A stretch of DNA of 64,000 bases from Chrysomallon squamiferum (Eukaryota > Animalia > Mollusca). Both the position numbers and the translations under genes were made by a program. Shown here one piece after another: positions 18,821 to 27,800 of this stretch (the stretch's first letter is position 1; each line of letters opens with the position of its first letter). The DNA is taken from contig CM022675.1 of NCBI GenBank assembly GCA_012295275.1, positions 2,542,001 to 2,606,000 on the forward strand, in the 5' to 3' direction. The notes below the pieces were generated by a model. That model was not told where the DNA came from. It ran no database searches and saw nothing but the letters and a program-made list of their open reading frames with translations.

Positions 18821-21800
18821 ATGCGGATATCATTAGTATTTCTGATATCTCTGAGCTTTTCGATCACACTAGGTAACTTTCTTTTCACAAATTTTCTTTA
18901 CGAATATAATTTATGTGTCTGCTGTTAACTGACTAATTAGGCTTAAAATCAGTGGAAGATAATTATAGTGAAAAAATAGTTCAAGAACAAGAAACTGCAT
19001 CTGTGTGTTTATTTTAACTCGTTTCACTGGCTTGTGTATTGACAAGTGTATCGAATAGTTTGACGACTCAATGCATATCGATACAATTGCGGAAAACGCT
19101 GTTTAATTTAATTACAAATTCATGCATGGACATTTTCATTGCTTAAAATAAGATGTTTCTTTACAGGAAAAGATTATTTCAGCTGCAGACGACAGGGTCA
19201 GGATTGTGCTAATAATAAAACTTGTCAAAATGACGGCACCTGTGACTGTGGAAATGACTACACTGGCTACAACTGTGAGCTGCAGAAAAGTAAGTAACGT
19301 AATTTTAATATGCAAAATCATAAATAAATAAATAAATAAATAAATAAATAAATAAATACAAATCATTATTAAAAAATTAAATTGAATTAAATTAAAAAAA
19401 TAAATTTAAAAAGTTACCTCCAGTCATTAATTAAATAAATTATTACTGATATTATTGTTGTTATGGCTAAATTGCAATCAAAAAGAAGAAATTTGTTTTT
19501 GTTTTTTGTTCCGTTTTGTAGGTTTGAGTGGTTCAAGTCCCTGTGCCAATCAGACTGACTCTTGTGGCTCTGATGGGGGTATCTGTTACAATGATAATGG
19601 AAACAAGGCCTGTTTCTGTCCATTCGGTTTCTATGGAGACCAATGCGAAAACAAACGATGTGAGTTATATATAAATTATTTATTATAAGAAATAAAGAAT
19701 TGAGATAACTGTTTTATATTATTATTTTTATTTTATTTTATGAATGCTAGTTTATATTTCAGCTGCTATCATAACTGTTTTTGCCCCAAGGATAGAACGA
19801 AAAAAAAAAGTGGAAATATTAAAGTGTTAAAAATACTAAAACAGGAACAAAAATCACAACTATTTACAGCCTTATTTCTTGGCAATTTTCATTCTTATAT
19901 CTTACTATTCATTGAATTTTATATTTGCGTTTTAAATATATGTAAGATACTGCAAATAAAAGCTATTTTTAAAAATAAATGTCTAAATATCTCAGTAAAG
20001 CAAATCCTAGTAATATGACCGTTCGTCTGAAATAGCAATACTACCTGTGTAATTTATTTAATTAACTTTTGCTGAAACTATGCTACTCTCTCTCTCTCTA
20101 TATATATATGTTTGTGTGTGTGTGTTTGTGTTTTTGTGTGTGTGTGCCTGTGTGTGTGCGTGTGTCTGTGTGTGTGTGTATATAACTCTGCTTTACAAAT
20201 ATTAATCGAAATTATTTTAGATGATGTTACCTGTGAGAAAAGTTCTATGTTGATTGTTATTAATCCTGCTGGAACATTCAGTGGTGTCGTCTATGCTAAA
20301 GGTGAAAAAGACACGCCAGGTTGCAAATTCTCGCCATCAGATGTACCCTCGGGAAAACAGGGTGTGGGTCTCAGTGTTAAGGATAGTGACTGTGGTGGGG
20401 TAATGCAGGTCAGTTGTATTTATCTTCTTATTTCGTCGTGATTTTTGAACTCTGTTGAAAGAATTTATTGTTCATTTTGTTTAAATGTTTGTTTGCTGTC
20501 CGAAATAAAATAGAAACTAAAAAAAAAAAAAAAAAAAAAAAAAAACACTTTAGAAATACTGAGAAAAAATGGGTTCAGATGTTGCTTAAAACAGTAATGA
20601 ATATATGTTGTGCAGTAATACTTTTTTTTTAAGGTAAGTAGAGGTCGGTCTCGAGATGTGGTCATTCAGTACAGTGAAAAGTACATGACAAACCTCGACA
20701 CAATAGTGACTGTCACGTGCACAAGCGACGATGCTAAAACTGTAACTGTCACCAAAGTGATAACAAGCGAAGAACTTGACAGGTTAGTAATTATTTTTAC
20801 TTCATTTCTATTGTTTCTTTTGCATTTTTCTACAGTGTTGTCAGCCTGTATATCGTTTAGGTACTGATTTTTATTAATATTATTAATTACAATATCAGTG
20901 GAAGTATTAGCAGTATTTTTACTTAATTCGTCCTTAACATGTCATCAACAGTTTCTGTTAATTCTGTATTTTAAGACTTATGATTTAATGCTACAAATGA
21001 GAATATAAAAATTAATCTTCATTACACCTTACATATACATCTGTTTATCATCTTATTCTGCAGAAACACAGAAAAGATCACAGACAAATTTGACTCAATA
21101 GATTCCTCTGTTGTCCAGTTCAACATCAACCTCAAAGACGGGTCTTCAGTTTCAGAATCAGAGGCTGTATCTTTAAATGAAGAACTTGCATACGATTTTT
21201 TTACAAGTAGGAACAACTTGTTTGTATATATATATATATATTACTTTTATACTACTACAACTACTACTACTACTACTAATAATAATAATAATAGTAATAT
21301 AATCGTTCTGATAAATGCATTTTATTTACTTGTTTTAATTGTATGTTTAGACGAACAGCTTTCATCTGAATTTATAAAAAGAAGGAAACATTTTTATTTT
21401 ATTTCATTTTTTTTTTTTTTTACATGCTTTTATTTCTGCTTGTTCTTACTAATCACTGTGTAAACTAATTTTAATTCTTTGATTTCGTTTATATGTGAAT
21501 GTTCTTTCTTTTAATTTCAGACTTGACCGCGGAGGTGCTGGACAAGATTGCTGATATTGAACCAGGTAATAAAAACTTTGTCTGATTTAGCTGTTTGACT
21601 TTTTGGGTCTGCTCATGAACCAGTGTTGCAAATCTCTTTTTGTTTTCTTTCTGTAAAGTGAATGTTCGTCTGTCTGACGGTAATACAACTAAAGAAGGTC
21701 GAGTAGAAGTGTTCTTCAATGGTAAATGGGGCAGGCTGCACACAGACTATTTTTACTTCTTTGAAGCAACTGCGATTTGTAGGAATCTCGGTTTCAAGTA

Positions 21801-24800: not shown

Positions 24801-27800
24801 CTTTCAATTTTCTGTAGAAGATAATCGAGAGGTTGAGATTCGTCTGGTTGGAAGCAATTCTACACGAGAAGGTCGAGTAGAGATTAAATATCTTGGAATG
24901 TGGGGCACAGTCTGTGATAAATATCATACTGATTACAACGCAGCTGTTTACTGCAGAATGCTCGGTTTCACTCAGTAAGTTATTAATAATGATTATTATA
25001 ACAAATGTTTACTGCAGAATGCTGGGTTTTACTAAGTAAGTTATTAATAATGATTATTATAAAAGCTGTTTACTGCAGAATGCTGGGTTTCACTAAGTGA
25101 GTTATTAATATAGATTATTATAACAGCTGTTTACTGCAGAATGCTGGGTTTCACTAAGTGAGTTATTAATATAGATTATTATAACAGCTGTTTACTGCAG
25201 AATGCTGGGTTTCACTAAGTAAGTTATTAATAATGATTATTATAACAGCTGTTTACTGCAGAATGCTGGGTTTCACTAAGTAAGTTATTAATATAGATTA
25301 TTATAACAGCTGTTTACTGTAGAATGCTGGTTTTCACTAAGTAAGTTATTAATATAGATTATTATAACAGCTGTTTACTGCAGAATGCTGGGTTTCACTA
25401 AGTGAGTTATTAATATTCTTTAGAATAATATATTTTGTTTTCCGTATGGAATATCAAGTTTAATAATTTCTGGTTTTTTGTTTTGAATGTCATCTAAGCA
25501 TATAATAATAATAATAATAATAATAATAATAATAATAATAATAATAATAATAATAATAATAATAACAACAACAACAACAACAACAACAACAATAATAATA
25601 ATCATAATAATAATTATAGTAATAATGAAAGTAATAAAATAAGTAAATAAATAAATTAATTAATAAATAATATTTACTATTTCCATGCAATTACTTGACT
25701 TTGCATATCAAATAATAATTCATTTTTCGAAATCTAGTTTTAGACAATGAATGACAGAATATTTATGAAAAATCATGCTTTTGTCAGTAAGAACTTTTAT
25801 TAATGAAATTTATATCTCTATTAACGTCATGCATAAGTGAAACAGAAGGTAGAGAAAGCAGACATTTTATTTTCAAAGTGATAAATAACTTCAACTCATA
25901 CGAATTTATTATAAAATAAACTCCTTTATATATATATATATATATATATATATATATATATATATATATATATATATATATATATATATATATATATATA
26001 TATATTCAGAGAAGGAGATAAAAAGTACATTTGAAAATGGCACATTCCATGTTTTGCAGTTCAAATGCAACAGCAGTTGGTAGTGCTTATTTTGGTGAAG
26101 GATCAGGACCTATCTTTCTGCGTGATGTTCACTGTTTGGGAAATGAAACCAGTCTTGAGCAGTGTGATTTTCATTGGGGCAACTATCGCTGTGACCATAG
26201 AGACGACGCTGGCGTGATATGTGCAGGTACTATGAAAATCCTGTTTCTCATTTTACCATTTTGGTTCTTACCTCCAAGTATTGTTTATAATAATTTGTTT
26301 GAAAAGTTAAGTCAGAACAAAACTAGTCGATTGAATTTCGGTGTGAGTATTTGTTAGTGAAATTTCGCAGAATAGATCCAAATAAAATCGTAGATAATAA
26401 TATATGAAACGAAATATTCTTGAGGACTTCCGGTTGAGATAACAATATCTAAAATGTGTAAGATCGCAATACGTGTATATTTAATAGAGCCAGAATCAGG
26501 CACTGTCAGAGTGGAATCATGCACTGCTGATAATCAGAAAACTGGAGAAGATAGCGAAACTTTCAAAATCATTGAAAACAGGTAATATATATATATGCAT
26601 ATATTTAAAGCTATTTATACACTAATACTTGCTTCGCAGCCACAAAAACCTGAATATTGATTTTTTTGACATTTTAAGTAAGATAATGGCGATTCACGTG
26701 CTCTGGAGATATAGTGGGTACTTTTAACAATTTGCAATCAATGTATTTTTTATTTATTTATTTATTTTTTAATTTTCTTGTCATATCATAAATGTCTCAG
26801 TTGACAGTGTAAACCAGTATTGATTATGCAACATAATTAAGCAATAGAGTCAAATTTCAACTTCCCAGAAACTGTATTAATATTCTTTCATTATTTAGCT
26901 GTCCTTCGTCTGAGATTGGTAAACTGATGATACAGGAACCTGAAAGATCGGGAAACAAAGTGACCTTCAAGTTGAAAGCTTTCACTTTTAACAAAAACAA
27001 CAAAGTTTCTACAGAATGTTCTGTCAAAGTTTGTCCTCCAGATCAAACAGCTCTATGTGACCCAGTAAGCTTTTTTGATTCGTGTGTAAACGTCTGCATT
27101 CGCAAATATAATTTTACTTTATCAGCTTTTATTTATTTTATATTTTATTTATTTATTTGTTTTATTTATTATTATTATTATTATTATTATTATTATTATT
27201 ATTATTATTATTATTATTATTATTATTTATTATTATTATTATTTTATTATTACCATTGCTTAAGTTTATATTTAAAACTGATAAAATCAAATATTAAATA
27301 GTGGGCACATGTAACTTTTCCTACAGAATAAAGGATGACGAAATCGTGTTATTTTTCTGTGTTAGAGTTTATATACAAACAAACTTTCAATCTTAGGTGG
27401 ACTGCAATGGCAAGGAAGGCTTTGGAAGAAAACGAAGATCTGCTGAAACGTCCGATGAACGTGTCAGAAAGACATACACTGTTCTGGACGTGATGAATGG
27501 AGATCAAATATCAAGTGAGTTTATATTAGATATAGTCTATAGTTTTACTTCATTAACTTCATCCGCATTTGTGATTAGTAGTGTCAGATTTACCGATATC
27601 ACATGCAAAAAAAAAAAAAAAAAAAAAAAAAAAAAAAAAAAAAAAAAAAAGAAAGATCTCAATTTTAAAATCTTACACATTCTAGGTGAAAAGCAAGGAT
27701 CTGATCAAGTTAGTATCAACAACATGATTCTGATTGTTCTCTGTGTTGTCATGGTGATCATCTTCTCACTTGTCATTGGGATTGTGGTGGTCGTCTTCCT

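Follow-up and report, generated by a model that had tools for sequence, protein, structure and literature searches.

Molluscan EGFZP proteins are mantle and shell-matrix components with a furin site, most of which are expected to remain on the cell surface and whose ZP-C domain is continuous (PMC9290575, in its available sections and supplement Fig. S1). Vertebrate DMBT1/SALSA/hensin unites SRCR repeats and a ZP module in one secreted protein; according to the accessible part of PMC3100851, the SRCRs of DMBT1 belong to group B and are each encoded by one exon, CUB domains are present, and the ZP at the C-terminus is intact. Known insertions into ZP folds include the ZP3 ZP-C subdomain, the fish AB-loop expansion and the CUTL-9 ZP-N DE loop (PMC7456536, available part). 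Lophotrochozoan LZP1 is listed as signal peptide, SRCR, ZP and TM. In ecdysozoan PAN-ZP proteins such as LET-653 and NompA, PAN lies upstream of ZP.

The window, the whole 64-kb stretch of Chrysomallon squamiferum (scaly-foot snail) DNA analysed here, holds a gene that shares with molluscan EGFZP its two EGF-like domains, ZP module, RKRR and transmembrane segment (TM), and putatively its leader. Splicing 19 exons by coordinate gave 2667 nt with an open reading frame of 888 aa plus stop, GT-AG borders at 18 of 18 coding introns, and the order EGF-EGF-ZP-N-ZP-C(part)-four SRCR-ZP-C(part), then TM. The original prediction had placed the end of exon 6 at 21206, the start of exon 16 at 26488 and, between these two parts of ZP-C, nine exons (1326 nt, 442 aa) encoding a 15-aa linker and four SRCRs, with RKRR, an EHP-like strand and TM retained; splicing confirmed this layout and located the last three elements in exons 18-19. 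Exons 7-15 form a phase 1-1 cassette, and because the end of exon 6 and the start of exon 16 are both in phase 1, dropping them preserves the frame and leaves a skip form of 446 aa.

18821..18872, + strand: exon 1, ATG and 17-aa hydrophobic, signal-peptide-like leader, judged by eye
19167..19659, + strand: exons 2-3, two EGF-like domains, six Cys each; sub-threshold Pfam EGF matches (E 0.02 and 6e-4); 66% identical to P0001
20221..20782, + strand: exons 4-5, ZP-N (C109, C139, C162, C196) and start of the interdomain linker; Pfam CUT_N (ZP-N type) in exon 4, E 2e-6
21064..21206, + strand: exon 6, linker end and predicted ZP-C strands A and B; phase 1 end
21521..21565, + strand: exon 7, 15-aa linker, phase 1-1; counterpart in copy C at 42040-42084
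21659..22176, + strand: exons 8-9, SRCR1, 7 Cys
22612..23248, + strand: exons 10-11, SRCR2, 6 Cys
23840..24402, + strand: exons 12-13, SRCR3, 4 Cys
24818..26226, + strand: exons 14 (24818-24974) and 15 (26060-26226), SRCR4, 6 Cys
26488..27064, + strand: exons 16-17, remainder of ZP-C, running from strand C (Cys5 = C718) as far as the FG loop and including the FxF motif; phase 1 start; in exon 17, Pfam ZP-C (PF00100) positions 84-132 of 133, E 6e-6
27397..27514, + strand: exon 18, last ZP-C Cys, RKRR furin-type site, EHP-like strand
27686..27855, + strand: exon 19, transmembrane segment, short basic tail, stop

Pfam was scanned exon by exon in 17 of the 19 exons, exons 1 and 7 being too short (<20 aa). 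SRCR matches came from seven of the eight SRCR exons (exon 11 gave none), exons 6 and 16, each scanned alone, had no match, and no CUB match was found in the 17 exons. The four ZP-N and six ZP-C cysteines align with those of chiton and abalone proteins; the latter are C718, C739, C778, C783, C791 and C796 (Cys5-8 and CysA/B numbering after the available part of PMC7456536, assigned by position in the sequence), and all six lie C-terminal to the insert. The FxF motif reads FTF. Each of the four SRCRs spans two exons, and, judged from sequence, they fit group A (six Cys, two exons), with the Cys count matching in two of the four, SRCR2 and SRCR4.

Alignment to relatives and the predicted structures of those relatives support the site given by the original prediction, within ZP-C and not between ZP-N and ZP-C; strands A and B precede the insert and strand C follows it, which puts it in the predicted B-C loop. 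The models (mean pLDDT 66, pTM 0.4) are of the relatives and are carried over to the window protein by alignment at 36-53% identity per exon. On the model of P0002, a PAN-bearing relative, the match to solved ZP-C domains starts at residues 239-245 and ends at 473-475; endoglin 5hzv aligns over 124 residues (Z 10.7, rmsd 3.0) and betaglycan 8dc0 over 145 (Z 9.4, rmsd 4.4), which exceeds the 121 residues following the insert. Because this superposition runs from the first strand to the end, the slot should lie inside ZP-C. The predicted P0002 model has the Ig-like sandwich of ZP-C from strand A (IHP) to strand G (EHP), and its residues 281-352 match HGF-N/apple domains (Z about 10, rmsd 2.0, 72 aligned), the PAN folding separately. 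An uninterrupted chiton control model begins at the matching target residue (4ajv 591 corresponds to model residue 249, and to 245 in P0002), and in an Atlas model 244-268 of residues 118-480 align to ZP proteins in seven of ten rows (TM 0.56-0.63). Strands A-B and C-G are thus predicted to come together again as a single ZP-C, from which the insert loops out. An array of four tandem SRCRs has to loop back, a greater demand than a single PAN makes.

The closest relatives are RefSeq proteins of Gigantopelta aegis (50-66% identity in the flanks), which share the scaffold of the window gene and are interrupted at the matching site. There they hold SRCRs (XP_041371612.1, XP_041372195.1), one or two PAN (XP_041347291.1, XP_041373445.1, XP_041373053/4.1) or nothing (XP_041371836.1), inserts that differ from the window's in kind and number; most of these models are partial, and their names are automatic only (uncharacterized, ELDP1, SRCR group B-like). 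P0001 carries SRCRs directly after the exon-6 equivalent, P0024 an SRCR directly before the exon-16 equivalent, and P0007 is a relative model without insert; no database protein with both ZP-C halves and the SRCR array in one chain was found. Chiton and abalone EGFZP proteins have an uninterrupted ZP-C. The segment that runs from the strand-B motif's end to Cys5 measures 18 residues in the chiton protein, 15 and 15 in the abalone proteins, 11 in P0007, 48 in P0018, 92-93 in the PAN forms (three proteins), 170 in the double PAN form and 456 in the window protein, or 14 once exons 7-15 are removed. Because vent-snail relatives hold PAN or nothing there, the B-C loop is likely a swappable display slot that takes SRCR, PAN, two PAN or nothing. 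Such variable content in a tandem family goes beyond what the original prediction had in view. A tree of the N-half (10 rows, without non-EGFZP outgroups) is mostly unresolved and silent on whether the inserts had one or several origins. Word-based homologue searches with single exons found nothing, and a phage DNA search with exon 17 gave no match.

Three further copies lie in the window, two of them broken:

30891..34714, + strand: copy B, fragment with exons 14, 15 and 16; two stops in exon 16
39154..47001, + strand: copy C, broken paralogue with exon order 6-7-8 as in the main gene; exon 4 frameshifted, exon 12 with a stop, exon 10 present twice, no exons 15-18
61991..63983, + strand: copy D, exons 1-4, truncated where the window ends

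Because the exon order 6-7-8 recurs in copy C (41662-42698), where exon 7 and its splice sites are preserved, and relatives are interrupted at the matching residue, we do not regard the split arrangement as chance. Between copies A and C, 7 of 74 fourfold sites differ in the scaffold versus 19 of 72 in the linker and SRCR1-3 (p 0.009); dN/dS is similar (scaffold 0.64, cassette 0.55) and therefore gives no sign of positive selection. X1 covers the scaffold exons to a far greater depth than SRCR1-3, a difference that is not a measure of copy number.

The scaly-foot 'DMBT1' array (PMC7142155; PMC7736800) likewise consists of tandem SRCR-bearing copies. By domain coordinates alone, 5 of its 50 models (Supplementary Data 2) resemble the window model read from M114, with an SRCR start at residue 174-175 (172 in the window model) and a next domain coordinate of 283-287 (282 in the window model), while one of the 50 has four SRCRs followed 7 residues later by a 77-aa ZP piece, as in the window gene. 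One array copy is annotated ELDP1. The main text of the scaly-foot paper contains 'zona pellucida' 0 times, describing the array as DMBT1 and noting no split ZP. A ZP row at 172-202 of Scaf481_0.9 in the scaly-foot table, considered as a prior report of the split, lies inside SRCR2 and was taken as spurious. Most rows show strong expression of the probable scaly-foot counterparts in scale epithelium and mantle, and weak expression in gill and symbiont gland.

Two alternatives concern the structure of the gene itself. That exon 6 is only an interdomain linker, with the insert forming an ordinary long linker between ZP-N and ZP-C, would agree with exon 6 having neither a Pfam match nor a cysteine, with every ZP-C cysteine following the insert, and with low sequence scores: exon 6 adds 3.6 bits to a ZP-C profile (48.7 vs 45.1), profile-profile comparison gives E 0.006 at a probability of 6%, and an exon-6 profile finds its expected place in three of four outgroup proteins with weak scores reachable by shuffles. 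PDB sequence searches gave nothing useful, and an Atlas search with exon 6 no match. The window's own exon 6 thus speaks weakly for ZP-C, and its placement draws on the relatives, whose exon-6 equivalents form, in both models, two strands that overlie the opening residues of ZP-C domains crystallised in isolation. Exon 16, moreover, starts at the Cys5 strand, which is strand C of ZP-C (PMC7456536, available part), and strands A and B must therefore come from upstream; we consider the linker reading highly improbable. The cassette might instead not be spliced to exon 6 in vivo, being usually skipped so that a plain EGFZP results, or two separate transcripts might carry the N-half and the SRCR-ZP-C half, as the phases permit skipping, P0007 has no insert and public models (P0001, P0024) are often broken here. 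RNA contigs bridge 9 of the 18 coding introns, intron 15 (SRCR4 to exon 16) included. None of the listed sequencing runs that contain the stretch is recorded as RNA; among three further RNA runs these joints come from X2 only (X3 and X4 gave 2 and 1 contigs), and the X2 contigs, mostly <95% alike to the window, are therefore probably from paralogues. Among the joints listed, none covers exons 6-7-8, none bridges any of introns 6-10, and none connects 21206 to 26488. RNA support for splicing of the SRCR exons into the transcript thus covers the SRCR4-exon 16 joint, in paralogue RNA, and not the exon 6-7-8 joints. The exon 15-16 joint, the absence of the skipping joint from those listed, the union of exon-6 equivalent and SRCRs in P0001, the retained exon 7 of copy C and the lack of any signal peptide seen for an SRCR-first protein make skipped or separate transcripts very unlikely. 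A nested separate SRCR gene was rejected on the fitting phases and the exon 15-16 join, and an assembly artefact on the repetition of the order in copy C and another species and on an X1 contig that covers 26129-26515 without differences, although X1 may be the source sample.

Taken together, the locus is probably an EGFZP-kind EGF-EGF-ZP-TM gene with a 442-residue cassette in ZP-C at the predicted B-C loop, whose product is likely a membrane-anchored, probably furin-released ZP scaffold displaying an SRCR array in a secreted epithelial matrix. The slot would be filled by exon shuffling of phase 1-1 modules, and tandem duplication with recombination would make the cassette change more quickly than the scaffold. 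Cleavage at RKRR would free the EHP and let ZP modules assemble, as in other ZP proteins, so that the protein may act as a shed, polymerising scaffold in a matrix that would most likely be shell periostracum or scale cuticle. A different role, that of a cell-surface scavenger or pattern-recognition receptor whose split ZP is a non-polymerising stalk or dimerisation base and whose variable SRCR heads bind microbes or symbionts, would suit a tandem array in which the cassette varies fast and the scaffold is conserved; DMBT1 SRCR arrays do bind microbes (PMC3100851, available part), and most EGFZP are expected to stay anchored (PMC9290575, available part). The receptor role is rather unlikely, given that RKRR, the EHP-like strand and the FxF motif are retained, elements with a polymerisation role in the available part of bioRxiv 2023.06.21.544075. 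The tissue pattern of the probable scaly-foot counterparts also weighs against it. So does the SALSA double-acid Ca2+ site, which, at the positions we take it to occupy from an unaligned motif, is apparently absent in SRCR1-3 and half-kept in SRCR4.

Extending the matrix-scaffold reading, we tentatively suggest, at somewhat short of an even chance, that peltospirid vent snails evolved a ZP display platform whose B-C exon slot takes PAN or SRCR arrays, that the 65-70-copy 'DMBT1' array of scale epithelium and mantle is this slot family, and that the armour matrix consists of ZP filaments with diversified SRCR heads. If so, the name, copy count (the insert seems to have divided the models in two) and proposed role of the array need revision, and the family becomes a testable candidate for the builder of the scale matrix. 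More generally, a natural slot taking 80 to 440 residues of two unrelated folds identifies a permissive loop through which ZP filaments could be studied or decorated, and is a clear-cut example of exons shuffled into a fold. Because ZP-C is interrupted at the slot, Pfam misses the ZP domain in such genes.

In our literature search we came upon no account of whole domains splitting a ZP-C; the original prediction likewise knew of no such architecture. LZP1 and the PAN-ZP proteins combine domain families in common with the slot family in one chain, the domain order of LZP1 differs from that of the window gene, and we know of none among them with an extra domain inside ZP-C. Unlike DMBT1, with its group B SRCRs (8 Cys, one exon) and intact ZP C-terminal to all of them, the window gene has two-exon SRCRs with 7, 6, 4 and 6 Cys, no CUB, EGFs first and a split ZP-C, with ZP-N and the first ZP-C part preceding the SRCRs. 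To chiton and abalone EGFZP it is 32-49% identical in EGF, ZP-N and the C-terminal ZP-C part (40-49% in the EGF domains of exons 2-3), and it has their furin-type site and hydrophobic segment; whereas EGFZP proteins have one uninterrupted ZP domain and no further domains, a 442-aa SRCR cassette lies within its ZP-C, in a tandem family, and the gene is therefore a derived variant and not a plain EGFZP member. The insertions in the available part of PMC7456536 resemble it in that ZP folds tolerate them, but they are expansions at other loops and not exchangeable whole domains at B-C.

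We regard the split-ZP architecture of the gene under study (copy A), an EGF-EGF-ZP-TM scaffold with a cassette of a linker and four SRCRs (exons 7-15) seated at a single slot, as very probably real. When its 19 exons are joined by coordinate, the reading frame stays open for 888 codons, and 18/18 coding introns have GT-AG borders; the coordinates and counts of the original prediction are correct. In a Pfam run on 17 of the 19 exons, exon 4 matches CUT_N, 7/8 SRCR exons match SRCR, and exon 17 covers positions 84-132 only of the ZP-C model; exons 6 and 16, each taken alone, gave no Pfam match. 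The cassette measures 1326 nt (442 aa), and phase 1 is found at both the exon 6 end and the exon 16 start. Each SRCR is encoded by two exons, with phases 1-2 then 2-1, and thereby forms a 1-1 module; the frame survives cassette removal. Under a tentative mapping of its positions, the double-acid site of SALSA SRCRs seems to be missing from SRCR1-3 and half retained in SRCR4.

An exon 4 profile searched against 1.84 billion representatives returned 19 matches, six of them named Gigantopelta aegis proteins, and a second search returned six, bringing in further G. aegis proteins along with chiton and abalone ones. Identity to the best G. aegis protein is 50-66% per scaffold part, which makes a peltospirid or a related snail the likely source of the window, and the relatives align with the window gene on both flanks of one single site. 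Counted from the strand-B motif end to Cys5 (P0030 does not fit the pattern and is excluded), the slot holds 18 residues in the uninterrupted chiton and 15 in each of two abalones. Three proteins with one PAN have 92-93 residues there and an isoform with a PAN pair has 170; the window gene has 456, or 14 once the cassette is removed. Among the G. aegis relatives, P0001 runs from its exon-6 equivalent directly into three SRCRs and then ends, and in P0024 an SRCR tail directly precedes the exon-16 equivalent. These lengths and contents make the site a slot for two unrelated folds in varying number. P0007 has 11 residues there, an empty slot that may be an annotation skip in a truncated model. 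P0018 (XP_041371611.1) has 48; its insert of ~35-40 aa (residues 146-185) resembles a PAN domain tail and may be a gene-model error.

Sequences argue weakly for a slot inside ZP-C: against an outgroup profile built from three sequences, cassette removal widens the matched positions from 42-130 to 5-130, a gain of 3.6 bits, and hhalign places exon 6 on chiton 249-278, directly ahead of strand C (E 0.006, probability 6%). Predicted structures give a clearer answer. In the model of the G. aegis protein P0002 (mean pLDDT 66.5, 18 rows), strands 246-251 and 268-274 are followed by a PAN domain (278-355) and a strand at 357-368. All 15 best Foldseek matches listed are ZP modules, and isolated ZP-C structures superpose from residues 239-245 to 473-475, with residues 281-352 aligning separately to HGF-N/apple domains.

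Structural alignments to the P0002 model
5hzv: Z 10.7, rmsd 3.0, 124 aligned
4ajv: Z 9.6, rmsd 3.6, 126 aligned
8dc0: Z 9.4, rmsd 4.4, 145 aligned

For the uninterrupted chiton control the alignment opens at the identical target residue, 4ajv 591 (Z 12.1, rmsd 3.2, 132 aligned), and strands 250-256 and 272-279 lead through a 7-residue loop to 287-298. Since strand C carries Cys5, according to PMC7456536, and exon 16 opens just ahead of Cys5, the slot would be the B-C loop. This placement, transferred to the window protein by alignment from models of its relatives, agrees with the original prediction of an insert inside ZP-C.

Copy A is a member of a tandem set, and the window also holds repeats and remnants:

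30.9-34.7 kb: copy B, exons 14-16, with stops
39.2-47.0 kb: copy C, with a frameshift and a stop; exons 15-18 absent
From 62.0 kb: copy D, ending at the window edge
1739-1791 and 2670-2929 (-): remnants of an inverted further copy (part of exon 17, 3'UTR-like sequence)
1054-1239 (-) and 61139-61657 (-): Tc1/mariner-type transposase fragments (DDE_3, E 5e-7; weak HTH_Tnp_Tc3_2)
7993-8432: 62-bp repeat, x7
14027-17193: 42-bp satellite, ~69 copies, upstream of the copy A gene
24941-25416 and 31014-33340: 61-bp minisatellite of exon 14 end plus splice donor, repeated 7.8 times in copy A and far more often in copy B, making a row of alternative donors
43789-43945 and 44566-44716: SRCR2 first exon, doubled in copy C
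46713-46843: passage in copy C from exon 14 almost straight into exon 19

In copy C, exon 6 is still followed by the linker exon 7 (45 nt) and then by SRCR1. Between copies A and C, dS is 0.20 in scaffold exons and 0.65 in SRCR1-3, fourfold sites differ at 7/74 versus 19/72 (Fisher p 0.009), and dN/dS is alike in both parts. This single pair suggests, from substitution counts, separate histories of scaffold and cassette, as paralogue recombination would produce. Variant contigs of sequencing run X1 number up to 22 at window 26127, 20 at 20368 and 18 at 27725; these positions lie in scaffold and SRCR4 exons, and the numbers hint at many paralogues.

None of the listed sequencing runs containing this stretch is recorded as RNA. 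Among three further runs, of RNA, contigs of X2 span at least 9/18 coding introns (3, 4, 5, 11, 12, 13, 15, 17 and 18), including the SRCR2-SRCR3 and SRCR4-exon 16 joints; 12 of the 15 contigs are less than 95% alike and so probably derive from paralogues. Neither exon 6-7-8 joins nor a direct 6-16 join is among the X2 joints listed. An X3 contig has an overhanging end that corresponds to sequence past copy C exon 14, so this stretch occurs unspliced in the X3 library.

In the predicted mechanism, the two ZP-C parts would refold together and the insert would loop out, given slack by the 15 residues of exon 7. The window gene retains RKRR, an EHP-like strand and the FxF motif; since such elements control release and polymerisation in ZP2, ZP3 and UMOD (bioRxiv 2023.06.21.544075), the shedding and filament assembly originally proposed are plausible by analogy. 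According to PMC9290575, EGFZP proteins occur in shell matrix, where the ZP domain binds other matrix proteins, and its authors expect most EGFZP to remain anchored. SALSA SRCRs have a double-acid cation site (bioRxiv 709915). We consider the whole reading, architecture and function together, likely.

A search of a literature mostly without subscription journals, including PMC9290575, PMC10855680, PMC7456536, PMC13361971 and PMC11871041, found no description of whole domains interrupting a ZP-C; the known ZP cases are loop expansions elsewhere in the fold, and similar arrangements could be depicted in the domain cartoons of PMC9290575 (Figs. S3-S6). The window gene falls outside the definition of DMBT1 given in PMC3100851. 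The scaly-foot genome is described in PMC7142155 as having a tandem array of 'DMBT1' copies, up to 65 of them and each with 0-5 SRCRs, with high expression in scale epithelium and mantle; its main text does not contain 'zona pellucida'. A second count gives 70 (PMC7736800). In its Supplementary Data 2, SRCRs start at residue 174-175 in 5/50 models (172 in the window model read from M114), 1/50 carries a run of four SRCRs and, 7 residues on, a 77-aa ZP piece, and CUB is listed in 0/50. The portion of the source table covered often places short unannotated models spanning approximately exons 4-6 just upstream of SRCR models, and names one array copy ELDP1. Domain coordinates and model spans, rather than sequences, are consistent with the scaly-foot 'DMBT1' array being the family of the window gene.
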